DNA of 49,836 nt from a virus (taxonomy: Duplodnaviria > Heunggongvirae > Uroviricota > Caudoviricetes), in the IMG/VR virus record IMGVR_UViG_2563366803_000005, positions 1 to 49,836 of that record; one strand, written 5' to 3'. Shown here piece by piece: positions 4,324 through 48,790 of the stretch. Below the pieces are notes generated by a model, which saw only the letters and a list, made by a program, of their open reading frames with translations, did no database searches and was not told the DNA's origin. Position 1 is the first letter of the stretch; every line of letters starts with the position of its first letter. The position numbers and the translations under genes were made by a program.

Positions 4324-4898
4324 TATCGCGTCCTCAACAATGAATTTTGTGATGCAGTGCCTGGTGCCTCCAGGTGACGTTAACCAGTTAACAATTAACG
4401 CCGGGTTAGTTGATGCTCGTTACGCCAGTAAAAGACCGCCTTACTGCTTTAACTGTTCCGCGTGCGCTCAGCCGCATTCACCGCATCACAAAATTCACTT
4501 TAAAAAGGGCGGCAGAGCAGTCACGGAGTAAAACTGATACCGCCAAACGTCACCAGAAAATTGATAACAGAGGGCGTTGCAGCGGGGTTGTCACTTAAGC
4601 GTATGGTCAACCTGACAACCCGGTGTCCTCAACGGGGGAAGGAATAACCCCGCCATATTTACCGCCGCGCCATTTCGCGGATTGCCACAACCGGAAGCGC
4701 ACGGTCGACGAAAATTTAACGACAGGCTATCTATGAACCAGCTACCTCGCCGTACGCTTTCGCGTTATGGTCTGACTTTTCAGGGAAATATCCTTTCAGT
4801 AAACTGTCAGTGCCGGATTCTTATCCGTGTCCGGCGCACGACCACACGCTGTCACGAGAGGTCTCCATTCTCAACCAGTAACCTCAATGGAGGATAAA

Positions 4899-13105: not shown

Positions 13106-13363
13106 ATACAGCGAACGCCATTGGTTTAGTTGGATATTTACTGTGCCGGACAAAAACGGTTTGCGGGGAAATCTTAGTTAAGTAGAATGACTGCGGGTGC
13201 TTGAGGCTATCTGTCTCAGGCATGAACACCAAAAGGCAGATAGAGAAAAGCCCCAGTTAACATTACGCGTCCTGCAAGACGCTTAACATTAATCTGAGGC
13301 CATATCTATGCGACACATAGAGATTAGCCTCTTACGGACCGAAAGGTCAAGGAGAAGCAGGCT

Positions 13364-13519
13364 ATGAAGCAGCAAAAGGCGATGTTAATCGCCCTGATCG
13401 TCATCTGTTTAACCGTCATAATGACGGCACTGGTAACGAGGAAAGACCTCTGCGAGGTACGAATCCGAACCGGCCAGACGGAGGTCACTGTCTTCACAGC
13501 TTACGAACCTGAGGAGTAA
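13364..13519 (+). CDS. hok: Hok/Gef-family type I toxin
   Basis: 51 aa (MKQQKAMLIALIVICLTVIMTALVTRKDLCEVRIRTGQTEVTVFTAYEPEE); Hok pattern with one TM helix and LTRK-x-LCE-x-R motif. A 19-codon upstream ORF (13308-13367) ends in ATGA overlapping the hok start. Confidence 0.8.
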   Translation: MKQQKAMLIALIVICLTVIMTALVTRKDLCEVRIRTGQTEVTVFTAYEPEE

Positions 13520-16385: not shown

Positions 16386-16756
16386 TGTGGTAAATGGGCG
16401 GCTGGTGGGTGTGGTGGTTGTTGCTTTCCCGTTGCTGAAAAAGAAAACGCCAGACTGTTAGCCGGGTATCAGTTATCTGGAGAAATTTTTAAATACCTCA
16501 CAATTCAGGCGGTTGACTGTTGTCTGGTTTGCGGGGAGTTTGTTAAAAGAAACTGGTATGGTGAATCCCCCTGTGCGGAGGGGCAATCAGCAACTGGTGT
16601 TTTGTCACCGACCCTTATCCTTTCTGTGCGGGTTCAGGTGCTGATACTGAACTCACCGGGAGGCACCCGGCATCATGCAATGGCACATAGCGCCACTCTC
16701 CAGCCCCTCTCCGGAGGGGCTGTTTATATTGATTTTGTCAGATGTGAGTAAACTCC

Positions 16757-38313: not shown

Positions 38314-39057
38314 ATGACACAGACTGAATCAGCGATTCTGGCGCATGCCCGGCGGTGTGCGCCTGCGGAGGCGTGCGGCTTCGTGATAAGCACGCCGGAG
38401 GGGGAGTGGTATATCCCTTGTGTGAATATTTCTGCAGAGCCGGAGGCGTATTTTCGTATCGCACCGGAAGACTGGCTGCGGGCAGAGATGCAGGGGGAGA
38501 TTGTGGCACTGGTCCACAGTCATCCCGGTGGGCTGCCCTGGCTGAGCGAGGCTGACCGGCGGCTGCAGATAAAAAGCGCACTGCCCTGGTGGCTGGTCTG
38601 CCGGGGTGACATTCACAAATTCCGCTGTGTGCCACATCTGACAGGGCGGCGCTTTGAGCACGGGGTGACGGACTGTTACACGCTGTTCCGGGATGCTTAT
38701 CATCTGGCGGGGACTGAAATGCCGGATTTTCATCGCGAGGATGACTGGTGGCGCAACGGCCAGAACCTGTACCTGGACAATATGGCGGTCACCGGCTTTT
38801 ACCGGGTGCCCCTGTCCTCTGCACAGCCGGGCGATATCCTGCTGTGCTGCTTCGGCGCATCGGTGGCTAATCATGCCGCCATTTACTGCGGCAACGGTGA
38901 ACTGCTTCACCATATTCCTGAACAACTGAGTAAACGGGAGAGGTATTCCGAAAAATGGCAACGACGAACGCATTCTGTCTGGCGTCACCGCCACTGGCAC
39001 GCATCTGCCTTCACGGGGATTTGCAACGATTTGGCCGCCGCCTCAGCCTGTATGTGA
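38314..39057 (+). CDS. K: Tail assembly protein gpK (JAB/MPN plus NlpC/P60-like)
   Basis: 247 aa from ATG 38314 (MTQTESAILAHARRC…); HSHPGG metal-binding motif and Cys/His context. Confidence 0.85.
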   Translation: MTQTESAILAHARRCAPAEACGFVISTPEGEWYIPCVNISAEPEAYFRIAPEDWLRAEMQGEIVALVHSHPGGLPWLSEADRRLQIKSALPWWLVCRGDIHKFRCVPHLTGRRFEHGVTDCYTLFRDAYHLAGTEMPDFHREDDWWRNGQNLYLDNMAVTGFYRVPLSSAQPGDILLCCFGASVANHAAIYCGNGELLHHIPEQLSKRERYSEKWQRRTHSVWRHRHWHASAFTGICNDLAAASACM

Positions 39058-39635
39058 ACACGGCAGCGGAAGCCATTCGCGCCCTGTCGATGCAGATGCC
39101 GGGCTTTCGCCGTCAGATGAACGAAGGCTGGTACCAGATACGTATTGCCGGTGATGACACGGCACCGGAGGCGGTGTATGCCCGTCTTCACGAACAGCTG
39201 GGTGAGGGAACGGTCATCCACATTGTGCCGCGACTGGCCGGGGCCGGAAAGGGTGGACTGCAGATTGTGCTGGGGGCGGCAGCCATCGTGGGCTCTTTCT
39301 TCACGGCCGGAGGCTCGATGGCGTTATGGGGTACAGCCCTGAGTGCCGGTGGTTTTTCTGCCACCACGATGCTGTTTTCACTGGGTGCCAGCATGATACT
39401 GGGCGGAGTGGCCCAGATGCTGGCCCCGAAGGCAAAAACACCGGATTACCGCGCAACGGATAACGGCAGACAGAACACGTACTTTTCCTCGCTGGATAAC
39501 ATGATTGCCCAGGGGAACCCGATGCCGGTGCCTTACGGGGAAATGCTGGTTGGCTCCCGCCGTATATCCCAGGACATCAGCACCCGTGATGAAGGCGGGG
39601 GCGGAAAGGTCGTGGTTATCGGGCGGCAGGGGTAA
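38955..39635 (+). CDS. I: Tail assembly protein gpI
   Basis: 226 aa; collinear with lambda I (…ARICLHGDLQRFGRR…, …KGGLQIVLGAAAIVGSFFTAG…, …NTYFSSLDNMIAQGNPMPVPYGEM…). Confidence 0.85.
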   Translation: MATTNAFCLASPPLARICLHGDLQRFGRRLSLYVNTAAEAIRALSMQMPGFRRQMNEGWYQIRIAGDDTAPEAVYARLHEQLGEGTVIHIVPRLAGAGKGGLQIVLGAAAIVGSFFTAGGSMALWGTALSAGGFSATTMLFSLGASMILGGVAQMLAPKAKTPDYRATDNGRQNTYFSSLDNMIAQGNPMPVPYGEMLVGSRRISQDISTRDEGGGGKVVVIGRQG

Positions 39636-39978
39636 AAAGAATAAAAAAATCCCGCAGTGATCGCGGACAGGAACTGCGGGAGAGTTACGAAGATTAAGTG
39701 TAAGGAATTATTCTTATATCACGACAAAAAAATTAACGCAGAGAAATTATACGCGCCACAGTCAGTTTGTGAAAATGTGAAGATATTCAGAATTTTTATG
39801 CCATTACCGGTTTTAACCAACAGGATTATCGGTGGGCATGAAAGAAAACCCCGGTATCTGCTGATACCGGGGTTTCTCTTTAGCATGGCAGAAATGTGTT
39901 TCATGCTTTTCGGGCGAAGGATATCCGACTTCTGTACGGAATGGCAAGTGGCGGTTAATTTATTCAGGGGAAGGCTGT

Positions 39979-42900
39979 ATGGGAAAAGGTGGCGGTAAGG
40001 CACACACGCCTCGTGAGGCGAAGGATAATCTCAAATCCACGCAGATGATGAGCGTGATTGATGCGATTGGTGAGGGACCGATAGAAGGTCCGGTGAAGGG
40101 ACTGCAGAGTATCCTGGTGAACAAAACCCCGCTGACTGACACGGACGGTAATCCCGTGATACACGGTGTGACGGCGGTCTGGCGCGCCGGGGAGCAGGAG
40201 CAGACACCACCGGAAGGCTTTGAGTCCTCCGGTGCTGAAACCGGACTGGGCGTGGAAGTGACGAAGGCAAAACCGGTGACGCGCACCATTACGTCCGCGA
40301 ACATTGACCGCCTGCGGGTTACCTTCGGGGGGCAGTCACTGGTGGAGACCACCTCAAAGGGTGACCGTAACCCGGCATCCGTCCGCCTGCTGATTCAGTT
40401 ACAGCGTAACGGTAACTGGGTGACAGAAAAGGACGTCACCATTAACGGCAAGACCACCTCACAGTTCCTGGCCTCGGTGATTCTGGATAATCTGCCTCCC
40501 CGGCCCTTTAACATCCGGATGGTCAGGGAGACGGCGGACAGCACCACGGACCAGCTGCAGAATAAGACGCTGTGGTCGTCATACACCGAAATCATCGATG
40601 TGAAACAGTGCTACCCGAACACGGCCATTGTGGGGCTGCAGGTGGATGCGGAGCAGTTCGGCGGCCAGCAGATGACGGTGAACTACCATATCCGCGGTCG
40701 CATCATCCAGGTGCCGTCAAACTATGACCCGGAAAAACGCACGTACAGTGGTATCTGGGACGGCAGTCTGAAACCGGCATACAGCAACAATCCGGCCTGG
40801 TGTCTGTGGGACATGCTGACTCACCCGCGCTACGGCATGGGAAAACGTCTGGGGGCGGCGGATGTGGACAAGTGGGCGCTGTATGCCATCGGGCAGTACT
40901 GCGACCAGATGGTGCCGGATGGCTTCGGGGGCACCGAGCCGCGGATGACCTTCAATGCGTACCTGGCACAACAGCGTAAGGCGTGGGATGTTCTCAGTGA
41001 TTTCTGCTCGGCGATGCGCTGTATGCCGGTATGGAACGGCCAGATGCTGACGTTCGTTCAGGACCGCCTGTCGGATGTGGTGTGGCCGTACACCAACAGC
41101 GATGTGGTGGTGGATGATAACGGCGTGGGGTTCCGCTACAGCTTCAGTGCCCTGAAGGACCGGCACACGGCGGTGGAGGTGAATTACACCGACCCGCAGA
41201 ACGGCTGGCAGACCTCCACGGAACTGGTGGAAGACCCGGAAGCCATACTGCGCTACGGGCGCAATCTGCTGAAGATGGACGCGTTCGGCTGTACCAGCCG
41301 CGGTCAGGCCCACCGTGCCGGACTGTGGGTGATAAAGACCGAACTGCTGGAAACGCAGACGGTGGACTTCACGCTCGGGTCTCAGGGGCTGCGGCACACA
41401 CCCGGTGACATTATTGAAATCTGTGATAATGACTATGCCGGGACCCTGACCGGCGGACGTGTCCTGTCCATTGATGCTGCCACCCGCACCCTGACGCTGG
41501 ACCGTGAGGTTACCCTGCCGGAGACAGGTACATCGGCGGTGAACCTGATTAACGGCAGCGGTAAGCCGGTGAGTGTGGACATCACCGCACACCCCGCGCC
41601 GGACCGGATACAGGTCAGTACCCTGCCTGATGGTGTGGAGACATACGGGGTGTGGGGACTCTCCCTGCCGTCACTGCGCCGTCGCCTGTTCCGCTGTGTC
41701 TCCGTCCGGGAAAACACGGACGGCACCTTTGCCATCACGGCGGTGCAGCACGTACCGGAAAAAGAAGCCATCGTGGATAACGGTGCCCGCTTTGAGCCGC
41801 AGTCAGGTTCCCTGAACAGCGTCATCCCACCGGCAGTGCAGCACCTGACGGTGGAGGTGAGCGCAGCTGACGGCCAGTATCTGGCGCAGGCGAAATGGGA
41901 CACGCCGCGGGTGGTGAAGGGTGTGCGCTTCAGTCTGCGTCTGACCAGCGGAAGCGGAGAAGACAGCCGTCTGGTGAGCACCGCCAGCACCGCAGACACG
42001 GAGCACCGTTTCAGCGGCCTGCCACTGGGGGAATACACCCTGACGGTCAGGGCGATTAACAGTTATGGCCAGCAGGGCGAACCGGCCACCACCACGTTCA
42101 GGATTAACGCACCTGCAAAACCCGCCACCATTGAGCTGACGCCGGGGTATTTTCAGATAACGGCGGTCCCGCGTCTTGCGGTGTATGACCCGACGGTACA
42201 GTTTGAATTCTGGTTCTCAGAAAAACGCATCACGAACACAGCACAGGTGGAAAAATCTGCCCGTTATCTGGGGACCGGCAGTCAGTGGACTGTCCATGGG
42301 AGCCGGATTAAGCCGGGGACGGATTTCTGGTTTTACGTGCGAAGCGTCAACCTGGTGGGAAAATCTGCTTTTGTGGAAGCCAGCGGGCAGCCCAGCAATG
42401 ATGGTGAAGGGTATCTGGAAATTTTCCGGGGGCTGATAGATGAGACGCTTCTGGGCCAGGCACTGAAAGAGCGCATTGATGCTTCAGCGCTGCGTACGGA
42501 GGTCACGCAACTGGAAGAAGACATCCGTCAGCGGATGGACACGGATATCGCAGAAGTGACCCGGAAAATCGGGAAGGCGGAAAACAGCCTCACGCAGCTG
42601 GTTGCGAAAAAGAATGAGGACCAGACACTGGCCATCGCGCAGGTGAGCCAGAAAGTGGACCGGGTGAGCAGTGAAATCTCACAGACTGTCAGCCAGGGGC
42701 AGTCAGAAAACGCCCGACAGATAGCACAGGTCCGCCAGTACGTGGATAAAAAAGGGAGTGAAATTACCTCGACCACGGATAAAAAGCTGGGTGACCAGGC
42801 CGTGACCATACAGCAAATCCAGCGGGTTCAGTCAGACACGCGCAATGAGCTGAATGCCATGTATATGCTGAAGGTGCAGAAAACAAAAAACGGTATTCCC

Positions 42901-43671
42901 TATGTGGCCGGGATTGGCGCGGGGATTGAGGATGTTGATGGTCAGACGCTGAGCAGTATTCTGCTGCAGGCGGACCGTATCGCGATGATTACCCCGGAGA
43001 ACGGCAACACCACGCCGCTGTTTGTGGCGCAGGGGAATCAGCTGTTCATGAACGACGTGTTCCTGAAGCGACTGTTTGCGGTGAGCATCACGTCATCCGG
43101 CAATCCTCCTACGTTTTCCCTGACGCCGGATGGCAGGCTGACAGCCCGCAATGCGGATATCAGTGGAGCCATCACGGCGAATACCGGCACGCTCAATAAT
43201 GTCACCATTAACGAGAACTGTGTCATCAGAGGGAAACTGTCTGCAAACCAGATTGAAGGCGATCTCGTTAAAACAGTGGGTAAGGTTTTCCCCCGTGACT
43301 CCCGTGCACCGGAGCGTTGGCCATCAGGAACCATTACCGTCAGGGTTTATGACGATCAGCCGTTTAACCGGCAGATTGTTATTCCGGCGGTGGCTTTCAG
43401 CGGTGCCAGACATGAGCGGGAGAACAGCGATACTTATTCGTCATGCCGCCTGATAGTACGGAAAAACGGTGCTGAAATTTATAACCGTACCGCGCTGGAT
43501 AATACGCTGATTTACAGTGGTGTTATTGATATGCCTGCTGGTCGCGGCCACATGACGCTGGAGTTTTCTGTATCAGCATGGTGGGTAAATGGCTGGTATC
43601 CCACAGCAAGTATCAGCGATTTGCTGGTTGTTGTGATGAAGAAAGCCACTGCAGGCATCACGATTAGCTGA
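39979..43671 (+). CDS. J: Tail tip / host-specificity protein gpJ
   Basis: 1230 aa; N-terminal about 900 aa collinear with lambda J ([22 protein letters not shown]…); carries an extra coiled-coil segment (about aa 830-960) relative to lambda J. Confidence 0.95.
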
Positions 43672-43738: not shown

Positions 43739-44338
43739 ATGCGTAAAGTTTGTGCAGCCATTTTGTCCGCAGCCATCTGTCTGTCCGTATCCGGTGCGCC
43801 TGCATGGGCGTCTGAACATCAGTCCACACTGAGCGCGGGGTATCTTCATGCCCGTACGAACGCTCCCGGCAGCGATAATCTGAACGGGATTAACGTGAAA
43901 TACCGTTATGAGTTTACGGACGCGCTGGGGCTGATTACGTCCTTCAGTTATGCCAATGCTGAGGATGAGCAAAAAACGCACTACAGCGATACCCGCTGGC
44001 ATGAAGATTCCGAGCGTAACCGCTGGTTCAGCGTGATGGCAGGGCCGTCTGTACGCGTGAATGAATGGTTCAGCGCGTATGCGATGGCGGGTGTGGCTTA
44101 CAGCCGTGTGTCGACTTTCTCCGGGGATTATCTCCGCGTAACTGACAACAAGGGGAAAACGCACGATGTGCTGACCGGAAGTGATGACGGTCGCCACAGC
44201 AACACGTCTCTGGCGTGGGGGGCTGGCGTGCAGTTTAACCCGACCGAATCCGTAACCATTGACCTTGCTTATGAAGGTTCCGGTAGTGGCGACTGGCGAA
44301 CGGATGCATTTATTGTTGGTATCGGATACCGTTTCTGA
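43739..44338 (+). CDS. lom: Outer-membrane protein Lom (Ail/PagC/Lom family)
   Basis: 199 aa; signal peptide and beta-barrel pattern ending …IVGIGYRF. Confidence 0.85.
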   Translation: MRKVCAAILSAAICLSVSGAPAWASEHQSTLSAGYLHARTNAPGSDNLNGINVKYRYEFTDALGLITSFSYANAEDEQKTHYSDTRWHEDSERNRWFSVMAGPSVRVNEWFSAYAMAGVAYSRVSTFSGDYLRVTDNKGKTHDVLTGSDDGRHSNTSLAWGAGVQFNPTESVTIDLAYEGSGSGDWRTDAFIVGIGYRF

Positions 44339-44477: not shown

Positions 44478-45185
44478 CACAGAAAACCCCCAGCTAGGCT
44501 GGGGGTTCCGGAAAGCTTTCAGCTTTAAGCCAGTTATTAAAACCCCTTTTGATTTGTTAAAACACCTTGCGGTCTGGCAACTGCAAGTGTCAAACAAGAA
44601 ATCAAAAGGGGGTCCCAATGGGGAACGAAAAGAGCTTAGCGCACACCCGATGGAACTGTAAATATCACATAGTTTTTGCGCCAAAATACCGAAGACAGGT
44701 GTTCTACAGAGAGAAGCGTAGAGCAATAGGCAGTATTTTGAGAAAGCTGTGTGAGTGGAAAAGTGTACGGATTCTGGAAGCTGAATGCTGTGCAGATCAT
44801 ATCCATATGCTTGTGGAGATCCCGCCCAAAATGAGCGTATCCGGCTTTATGGGATATCTGAAAGGGAAAAGCAGTCTGATGCTTTACGAGCAGTTTGGTG
44901 ATTTGAAATTCAAATACAGGAACAGGGAGTTCTGGTGCAGAGGGTACTACGTCGATACGGTGGGTAAGAACACGGCGAAGATACAGGATTACATAAAGCA
45001 CCAGCTTGAAGAGGATAAAATGGGAGAGCAGTTATCGATTCCCTATCCGGGCAGCCCGTTTACGGGCCGTAAGTAACGAAGTTGGATGCAAATGTCAGAT
45101 CGTGTGCGCCTGTTAGGGCGCGGCTGGTAAGAGAGCCTTATAGGCGCATTTGAAAAACCTCCGGCTATGCCGGAGGATATTTATT
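44478..45185 (+). mobile_element. IS200-family insertion sequence (about 0.7 kb, boundaries approximate)
   Basis: Single tnpA gene flanked by terminal hairpins: left CCCCCAGC-TAG-GCTGGGGG (44487-44505), right CCTCCGG-CTATG-CCGGAGG (45158-45176). Lies between lom and stf. Confidence 0.6.
44618..45076 (+). CDS. tnpA: IS200/IS605-family transposase TnpA (Y1 HUH)
   Basis: 152 aa (MGNEKSLAHTRWNCKYHIVFAPKYRR…HIHMLVEIPP…RNREFWCRGYYVDTVG…); HxH and catalytic Tyr motifs. Confidence 0.85.
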   Translation: MGNEKSLAHTRWNCKYHIVFAPKYRRQVFYREKRRAIGSILRKLCEWKSVRILEAECCADHIHMLVEIPPKMSVSGFMGYLKGKSSLMLYEQFGDLKFKYRNREFWCRGYYVDTVGKNTAKIQDYIKHQLEEDKMGEQLSIPYPGSPFTGRK

Positions 45186-48206: not shown

Positions 48207-48790
48207 TGGCATTCAGAATGAGTGAACAAGCACGGACCATAAAAATTTATAATCTGCTGGCCGGAACTAATGAATTTATTGGTGAAGGTGACGCATATAT
48301 TCCGCCTCATACAGGTCTGCCAGCAAACAGTACCGATATTGCACCACCAGATATTCCTGCTGGCTTTGTGGCTGTTTTCAACAGTGATGAGGCATCGTGG
48401 CATCTCGTTGAAGACCATCGGGGTAAAACGGTTTATGACGTAGCGTCAGGGGACGAGTTATTTATTTCTGAACTCGGTCCGTTACCGGAAAATGTTACCT
48501 GGTTATCGCCGGAAGGGGAGTTTCAGAAGTGGAACGGCACAGCCTGGGTGAAGGATACGGAAGCAGAAAAACTGTTCCGGATCCGGGAGGCGGAAGAAAC
48601 AAAAAACAACCTGATGCAGGTAGCCAGTGAGCATATTGCGCCGCTTCAGGATGCTGCAGATCTGGAAATTGCAACGGAGGAAGAAACCTCATTGCTGGAA
48701 GCCTGGAAAAAGTATCGGGTGTTGCTGAACCGTGTTGATACATCAACTGCACCTGATATTGAGTGGCCTACGAACCCTGTCAGGGAGTAA
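48206..48790 (+). CDS. tfa: Tail fibre assembly protein (Tfa)
   Basis: 194 aa; ATG overlaps the stf stop; Tfa-like C-terminus (…[45 protein letters not shown]…). Confidence 0.85.

Follow-up and report, generated by a model that had tools for sequence, protein, structure and literature searches.

A predicted PasB-family small RNA gene, antisense to the late operon, lies in the spacer that separates tail genes I and J in a lambdoid prophage

The window analyzed here is a stretch of 49,836 nucleotides, positions 1 to 49,836 of the IMG/VR virus record IMGVR_UViG_2563366803_000005 (Caudoviricetes), and our subject is the spacer in it that separates the lambda-type tail genes I and J. Judged by its sequence, the 160 bp of this spacer adjoining gene I is a complete minus-strand gene for a small RNA (sRNA), with expression predicted, and it resembles the locus of PasB, an RNA of enteropathogenic Escherichia coli (EPEC). 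The part of the spacer beside J is a separate module with a hairpin of its own. The features, in their order along the window, are as follows.

38955–39635, plus strand: gene for tail assembly protein I (Pfam PF06805, CFT073 annotation).
39636–39978, no strand assigned: I–J intergenic spacer of 343 bp and 41.7% GC, with the sRNA cassette beside I and the hairpin module beside J.
39643–39680, minus strand: intrinsic terminator (hairpin 1), stem CCCGCAG/CTGCGGG and U7; called by the terminator scanner, with a stem invariant in 16 aligned alleles and 25 nt identical to PasB.
39643–39739, minus strand: predicted primary transcript of 97 nt, a PasB-family sRNA, placed by the promoter, the terminator, alignments with PasB and a family hidden Markov model (HMM).
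39686–39697, minus strand: conserved single-stranded block UUAAUCUUCGUA, a candidate seed, with most columns identical in at least 90% of 41 distinct alleles.
39701–39715, minus strand: A-rich A-R-N run (AAG AAU AAU), then the anti-Shine-Dalgarno-like UUCCUUA; candidate Hfq distal-face site and second pairing region.
39746–39773, minus strand: predicted sigma-70 promoter, with -35 box TTCACA (39773–39768), a 16-bp spacer and -10 box TATAAT (39751–39746); a scanner call at 11 of 12 consensus positions, with the same promoter upstream of PasB in E2348/69, where the region is 92% identical.
39776–39799, minus strand: A-tract ATAAAAAT (39799–39792) and dyad TCTGA-N6-TCACA (39791–39776); homology between cassettes starts abruptly at the A-tract.
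39839–39862, no strand assigned: hairpin 2, CCCCGGTATC-TGCT-GATACCGGGG, part of an invariant J-proximal module (39795–39978).
39979–43671, plus strand: gene for tip attachment protein J (Pfam J-domain families).

The limits of the spacer follow from the Pfam assignment of the two flanking open reading frames (ORFs). That at 38955–39635 on the plus strand is the lambda tail assembly protein I (PF06805 Lambda_tail_I, E = 1.8e-16), for which the RefSeq annotation of identical prophages, in CFT073 for example, gives a shorter version of 582 nt; in that at 39979–43671, also on the plus strand, six J/tail-tip domain families pass the Pfam cut-off. The I–J spacer is therefore exactly 39636–39978, the 343 bp given in an earlier note on this DNA that was made from the letters alone. 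That note put the GC content of the spacer at roughly 35%, a value that describes the stretch between the two hairpins (34.8%) and not the whole spacer (41.7%); the window as a whole stands at 51.4%, and the flanks at 55–65%, compared with 30–40% here. It also had I and J abutting in lambda, which is not so: the two genes are 60 bp apart there, and the gap has its own hairpin. The spacer as a whole folds far more strongly than its shuffles (z = -4.78). An independent promoter and terminator, a position between genes that are only 60 bp apart in lambda and a deviant GC content are thus all found here, as in a moron.

Read on the minus strand, the predicted gene starts from a near-consensus promoter, with a perfect TATAAT, about 60 nt upstream of the hairpin-1 terminator. 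With +1 taken as the G at 39739, 7 nt past the -10 box, the predicted RNA has its 3′ end at 39643, at a distance of 8 nt from the stop codon of I, and is AU-rich and largely unstructured outside the terminator. In the terminator itself CCCGCAG (39651–39657) pairs with CTGCGGG (39674–39680), and the A7 at 39643–39649 becomes U7 on the minus strand; the plus-strand hairpin runs into AGAGTTACG, so termination is expected in one direction only. Both the coordinates of this hairpin and its reading as a minus-strand terminator, as first noted from the letters, agree with the sequence and with the scanner, and a hairpin-plus-T-run pattern of this kind occurs once in the window and in none of 100 shuffles. 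In 41 alleles the mean length of the longest A-R-N run is 3.56 triplets, compared with 1.44 in shuffles. A search of the window with the family HMM gave a single match, at the sRNA locus (E = 5e-20), so that the window holds one copy.

The closest characterized relative is PasB, an 83-nt minus-strand RNA (NC_011601.1, 1466343 to 1466261) from prophage PP6 of EPEC E2348/69 that the probe AATCCCGCAGTGATCGCGGAGCT revealed on a Northern blot (Pearl Mizrahi et al., 2021; PMC8550237). In the same study its level fell in an hfq deletion mutant (log2 fold changes of -6.8 and -2.4), it was more abundant in overnight static lysogeny broth (LB) than in Dulbecco's modified Eagle medium (DMEM), and RIL-seq, in which interacting RNAs are ligated and sequenced, gave 37 interactions, mostly with coding sequences and 5′ untranslated regions, placing it at rank 15 by interaction number. 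We found that the PasB coordinates fall in a 240-bp spacer between the tail assembly gene and gpJ of PP6, antisense to both, where our scanner called the same promoter and terminator. The two loci share the I–J position, the antisense orientation and a 3′ end 6–8 nt from the I stop codon, and they have in common a TTCACA-16-TATAAT promoter, an identical terminator half with U7 and a similar block ahead of the terminator. In numbers, 56 of 61 positions are identical in the promoter region (92%) and 25 of 25 in the terminator half plus U7, and the first 20 of the 23 nt of the Northern probe match window positions 39649–39668. The pre-terminator block, UUAAUCUUCGUA in the window and UUGAUCUUCAUU in PasB, is the part of the molecule in which the PasB seed has been proposed to lie (Zhu, Shabalina and Storz, 2026; bioRxiv 10.64898/2026.05.13.724894). 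The predicted transcripts are, however, 74% identical over their whole length and only 63% identical in the body upstream of the terminator, the terminator loop differs, and expression of the window allele is predicted from homology. On this sequence comparison the window unit is a positional, promoter and terminator homolog of PasB. A full-text literature search with the probe or hairpin sequence returned no match.

A second set of relatives comes from E. coli O157 Sakai, where EcOnc22 (in prophage Sp15), EcOnc23 (Sp14) and EcOnc24 (Sp11) were described as homologous orphan Hfq-binding sites on the plus strand, and where EcOnc22 gave a band of about 85 nt on a Northern blot and was destabilized in an hfq deletion mutant (Tree et al., 2014; PMC4104026, Table S2). 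In NC_002695.2 the tail operons of Sp11, Sp14 and Sp15 run on the minus strand, and each I–J spacer carries, on the plus strand, an identical 91-nt PasB-family cassette: 2902836–2902926 (2337–2427 of our extract L259), 2676767–2676857 (L260) and 2166817–2166907 (L262). The publication uses older coordinates, and the peaks obtained there for EcOnc22–24 by Hfq cross-linking with cDNA analysis (CRAC) center on these cassettes after a shift of +137 to +138.5; independent calibrations of the shift gave +139 to +143 for AgvB1 at 1.94 Mb and +119 to +218 for the EcOnc42 homolog at 2.92 Mb. The Sakai cassettes resemble that of the window in their place in the I–J spacer, antisense to the tail operon, in having the same upstream dyad and promoter layout, in a 5′ end one base off (GCAUUA for GCGUUA), in the UUAAUCUUC block and in the CCCGCAG/CTGCGGG-U7 terminator. 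They differ in carrying another body allele, and the assignment depends on coordinate calibration between genome versions. From this mapping we conclude that EcOnc22–24 are members of the PasB family, an equivalence not stated in the two PasB papers (Pearl Mizrahi et al., 2021; Zhu et al., 2026). Since PasB and the Sakai allele are both Hfq-dependent RNAs, at least two divergent alleles are expressed. The prophage anti-sRNAs AgvB, AsxR and EcOnc03 (Tree et al., 2014) are likewise short and Hfq-bound, and they form a family with A-R-N motifs in which the 3′ terminator part is conserved and the 5′ specificity region varies, but they have another sequence and another locus and are shorter (51–60 nt).

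Diversity within the family was followed in 41 distinct sRNA sequences, taken from 15 further E. coli loci and from 119 IMG/VR contigs fetched by promoter pattern; the window allele is the commonest in the viral contig sample (33 of 121). Conserved are the promoter, the 5′ GCGUUA, a U-run, the A-R-N run, the UCCUU motif, the block UUAAUCUUC(G/A)U immediately ahead of the terminator, and the stem CCCGCAG/CTGCGGG with U7; the remaining body and the terminator loop vary. In two prophages whose flanks are 96–100% identical to the window, identity drops to 69–72% over 39650–39745 and stays at 100% over 39775–39978, so that the transcribed body stands out as a sharp divergence island. Some I–J spacers hold tandem arrays: three cassettes were seen in E. 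coli JNEC-KY175 and as many as four promoter units in contigs of IMG/VR, with an array of four complete cassettes in the contig we call L173 (minus strand, 700–1515). In the arrays that we read (L013, 151–745, and L173) every cassette comes with a dyad, a promoter, a distinct body and a terminator of its own, and after the terminators there is a short stretch resembling the end of gene I on its 3′ side, consistent with unequal crossing-over. The spacers of L225, L228, L230, L167, L171, L224 and L007 likewise hold from two to four promoter units like that of PasB, and arrays occur in about 8–11 of the 119 sampled viral contigs.

The published survey of PasB relied on blastn at a word size of 28, with query coverage above 75%, and it reported variants differing by a few nucleotides and PasB as the least diverse Pas sRNA (Zhu et al., 2026; bioRxiv 10.64898/2026.05.13.724894). 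When we ran the 83-nt PasB against the window with blastn, word size 28 gave no match, and word sizes 11 and 7 recovered only the 25-nt terminator (25 of 83 positions); the window allele fails the published settings because its single-stranded body is only 63% identical to PasB. Out of 5,426 complete genomes of E. coli, 956 were found by a megablast search with PasB, none of them below 90% identity, so that the window allele was not picked up. By comparison, a 151-nt query made of the window promoter and sRNA matched 1,842 complete E. coli genomes in 1,853 records: 636 of these records are at least 99% identical to the window, among them CFT073, “Seattle 1946” (ATCC 25922) and some strains of sequence type 131 (ST131), and 811 fall in the 60–80% identity band, which includes the PasB-type allele. 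All 62 matches in the phage collection are Escherichia or Shiga toxin (Stx) phages. A pattern for the terminator alone, CCCGCAG-N-CTGCGGGATTTTTT, is too unspecific for this purpose, as unrelated taxa were among the matches listed in the genome contig scan. A truncated cassette, with body and terminator and the promoter lost, was seen in E. coli FDAARGOS_1059 (NZ_CP066032.1, 3349342–3350642; L014), between the sodC gene and an IS679 transposase and so outside an intact I–J context.

The dyad upstream of the promoter matches the CRP consensus TGTGA-N6-TCACA at 9 of 10 positions. Across 35 distinct promoter variants its half-sites are invariant and the N6 varies, and the left half-site was not imposed by the promoter search pattern. 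Its center lies at about -44.5, however, compared with -41.5 for class II sites, and the window contains two CRP dyads with one mismatch where 1.9 are expected, which is the chance level; for both of these reasons we treat a CRP site as a lead only. Spot 42 is repressed by cAMP-CRP, and it shows the opposite medium pattern to PasB, which is higher in overnight LB than in DMEM. The expression pattern of PasB is compatible with CRP control, but growth phase explains it equally well.

Hairpin 2, in the J-proximal part of the spacer, has a 10-bp GC-rich stem with arms CCCCGGTATC (39839–39848) and GATACCGGGG (39853–39862) around the loop TGCT, and a free energy of about -27 to -28 kcal/mol on either strand. 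It is A-rich before and T-rich after on both strands, lying on the plus strand between AAAGAAAA and TTTCTCTTT and being followed on the minus strand by TTTTCTTTC. The earlier note was right about a hairpin flanked by T-runs on both strands and wrong about its coordinates, 39842–39875, the true ones being 39839–39862. In form it resembles a bidirectional terminator. The terminator scanner did not call it, with its tails TTTCTCTTT (plus) and TTTTCTTTC (minus), probably because greedy stem extension consumes the T's. The module to which it belongs (39795–39978) is at least 99% identical in 1,442 records, where it adjoins different sRNA alleles, and among all 1,451 records (each at 95% identity or more) no diverged relative was found. 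Other J-proximal modules have at this point a different hairpin, ACAGGCACC...GGTGCCTGT with TGTTTTTG after it on the J-sense strand, and one stem pair of this hairpin is changed on both sides between loci (C–G in some, T–A in others); in E2348/69 the hairpin at the same position was called a plus-strand terminator by the scanner. The 60-bp gap of lambda itself (J02459, 15445–15504; 845–905 of our extract L258) is mostly a hairpin, ACCGCC-TGCG-GGCGGTTTTGTCATTT (right arm GGCGG), then TTTTGTCATTT on the J-sense strand.

A terminator-like element within the late operon thus appears to be common to lambdoid I–J junctions. Hairpin 2, on this comparison of sequences, is the local version of a J-sense hairpin found at the I–J position in several lambdoid phages, with the sRNA cassette lying between it and the I stop codon. 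The two hairpins had at first been taken for two terminators of one insert, and this needs revising, since hairpin 2 sits in a separate invariant module beside J and a J-sense hairpin is found there in lambda and in E2348/69 as well. Like the lambda morons lom and bor, the window cassette is an independent unit of promoter, gene and terminator, of lower GC, between late genes that are neighbors in lambda, and its spacer resembles the lambda gap in having a hairpin and then T's just before J; it differs in that its cargo is a non-coding RNA antisense to the operon, the lambda gap being 60 bp with a hairpin and without an sRNA cassette.

We consider that the window allele is an expressed gene for a PasB-family, Hfq-dependent, trans-acting sRNA, with a probability of about 0.78. 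In this reading, positions 39643–39799 would be a self-contained sRNA moron that entered, in antisense orientation to the late operon, between the stop codon of I and the hairpin that normally precedes J. In a lysogen, host RNA polymerase would transcribe the sRNA independently of phage late transcription; Hfq may then bind the U7 tail and the A-R-N run, and the body, comprising the UUAAUCUUCGUA block, the UUCCUU motif and an allele-specific 5′ part, would base-pair in trans with mRNAs, either host or accessory. With a body only 63% identical to that of PasB, the window allele probably has a partly different set of targets. Hairpin 2, outside the sRNA gene, most probably serves as an intercistronic, terminator-like insulator: it would stop polymerase without the Q antitermination modification before J, and on the other strand it would protect the sRNA promoter against antisense transcripts coming out of J.

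Several observations weigh against this reading. The published 5′ end of PasB lies 15 nt downstream of the +1 predicted here, which means that the 5′ end is either processed or mispredicted; modeled on the published 83-nt RNA, the mature form in the window would be 84 nt (39726 to 39643). The sRNA site carries no annotation in any record examined, and Rfam gave no credible family in the spacer, either at gathering thresholds over the whole window or up to E = 10 over 39500–40100; in particular, the AgvB and AsxR models (RF02702 and RF02703) gave no match at either of these settings. RNAalifold on 16 alleles predicted the terminator stem, and the stem alone, with no conserved structure in the body and no covariation, and because that stem never varies, structure gives no independent support. 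When the sRNA body was folded as duplexes with 150 ORF starts of the window, the best value was -27.4, compared with a mean best of -30.6 for shuffled sequences, so that targets within the prophage are predicted no better than for shuffles. Expression of the window allele is predicted from its homologs, and its putative trans-acting role is modeled on PasB. For hairpin 2 a bidirectional insulator is a best guess, from position and sequence only.

The same arrangement could be read as cis-antisense control or interference between phages, with the sRNA taking as its main target the late tail mRNA, its perfect complement over the I–J junction; the sRNA could lower or uncouple J expression, or cleave late mRNA made by superinfecting lambdoid phages with the same allele, and so drive diversification of the body. 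The RNA is indeed encoded exactly antisense to the I–J intercistronic region, and a body that forms a sharp divergence island between near-identical flanks, in many alleles and in tandem arrays, resembles a specificity determinant. We nevertheless consider this unlikely, as PasB has many trans-encoded mRNA partners in RIL-seq (37), the identical allele in three co-resident prophages of Sakai misfits allele-specific exclusion, and late transcription antiterminated by Q would probably overrun the convergent sRNA promoter (this last by inference from established lambda biology). Slightly less probable is that the locus is a decayed or silent relic, its promoter and hairpins left over from an old moron that no longer makes a functional RNA: the missing annotation, the reliance on homologs for expression and the poor conservation of the body against PasB (63%) would fit, but the promoter matches at 11 of 12 positions with a perfect TATAAT and the terminator is intact, the A-R-N run and seed block are kept across 41 alleles, and expression is known for two further alleles that share this promoter and terminator. 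The allele is moreover identical in hundreds of genomes and the commonest sampled (at least 99% identity in 636 records, 33 of 121 in the viral sample), and this prevalence argues against decay. A bolder extension, offered as speculation to which we give slight credence, makes the I–J spacer a dedicated recombining locus for sRNA cassettes, in which promoter and terminator are fixed, bodies can be exchanged and arrays reach four promoter units. The bodies would be under diversifying selection because the RNAs target, in an allele-specific antisense manner, late tail mRNA from related lambdoid phages, in a form of RNA-based inter-phage competition or superinfection interference.

The two remaining alternatives concern other products of the spacer. 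A second minus-strand sRNA of about 75 nt might start at a weak promoter, TTGCCA-18-TATCCT (39947–39918), and end at hairpin 2 with the tail UUUUCUUUC; the promoter-like site matches at 9 of 12 positions and hairpin 2 does have a T-rich minus-strand tail, but such a match is weak where the region has four promoter-like sites and 1.3 are expected, the J-proximal module is invariant, and in other spacers and in lambda the T-tail is on the J-sense strand only, so that we regard this RNA as very improbable. The least credible proposal is that one of the spacer ORFs encodes a protein. These are ORFs of 113 aa (plus strand, 39657–39998), 94 aa (minus strand, 40003–39719) and 44 aa (minus strand), and they exist mechanically; in one phage record, ASU11, a hypothetical protein is annotated there. 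They span, however, both terminator hairpins and the sRNA promoter, internal ATGs have no evident Shine-Dalgarno sequence ahead of them, and the ORFs of 113 and 94 aa have no Pfam match. In L016, L017, E2348/69 and Sakai they are cut short, shifted or missing, since the alleles are set apart by indels whose lengths are not divisible by three. Where the earlier note spoke of short ORFs only, two long ones therefore cross the spacer, though without a Pfam match or conservation; and of the small-RNA or small-protein moron that it suggested, the small RNA is favored by the promoter, the terminator and the match to PasB, and the small protein was rejected, for want of a Pfam match and of ORFs conserved between alleles.

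Prophage sRNAs of this kind are already known, with EcOnc22–24 described since 2014, PasB since 2021 and a preprint on distribution in 2026, and the general picture of lambdoid prophages carrying sRNA morons is unchanged. What is new is the window allele, widespread in extraintestinal strains and outside the published definition, together with the link between EcOnc22–24 and PasB, the divergence-island and array architecture, the conserved dyad, and the placing of hairpin 2 as the native I–J hairpin. The window allele stands unannotated in roughly one in eight complete E. coli genomes, and it would have gone uncounted in the sole published survey of the family. Should its expression resemble that of the two validated relatives, an unstudied Hfq-dependent regulator, with a pairing region unlike that of PasB, is present in many extraintestinal pathogenic strains. 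The mapping of EcOnc22–24, the divergence island and the tandem arrays suggest for the PasB family a greater age, diversity and spread than has been described.

Other structured RNAs were found in the window. Rfam IS009 (48549–48747, plus strand, 225 bits) lies within 10 kb of the sRNA cassette, and IS009 is among the commonest structured-RNA matches within 10 kb of PasB (Zhu et al., 2026; bioRxiv 10.64898/2026.05.13.724894); its presence here fits the identification of a PasB locus. A match to STnc100 (16527–16731, plus strand, 131.7 bits) represents a prophage sRNA related to PasD (Zhu et al., 2026; bioRxiv 10.64898/2026.05.13.724894). The Hfq-binding RNA STnc490 (Rfam, 44485–44608, plus strand, 146 bits, full length) is directly downstream of a lom-like gene (43739–44338) and is another sRNA moron of the tail region. 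The window further contains the antisense sRNA DicF (4507–4558, minus strand, 76.7 bits) and the sok antitoxin RNA of a hok/sok-type module (13195–13366, plus strand, 106.7 bits).

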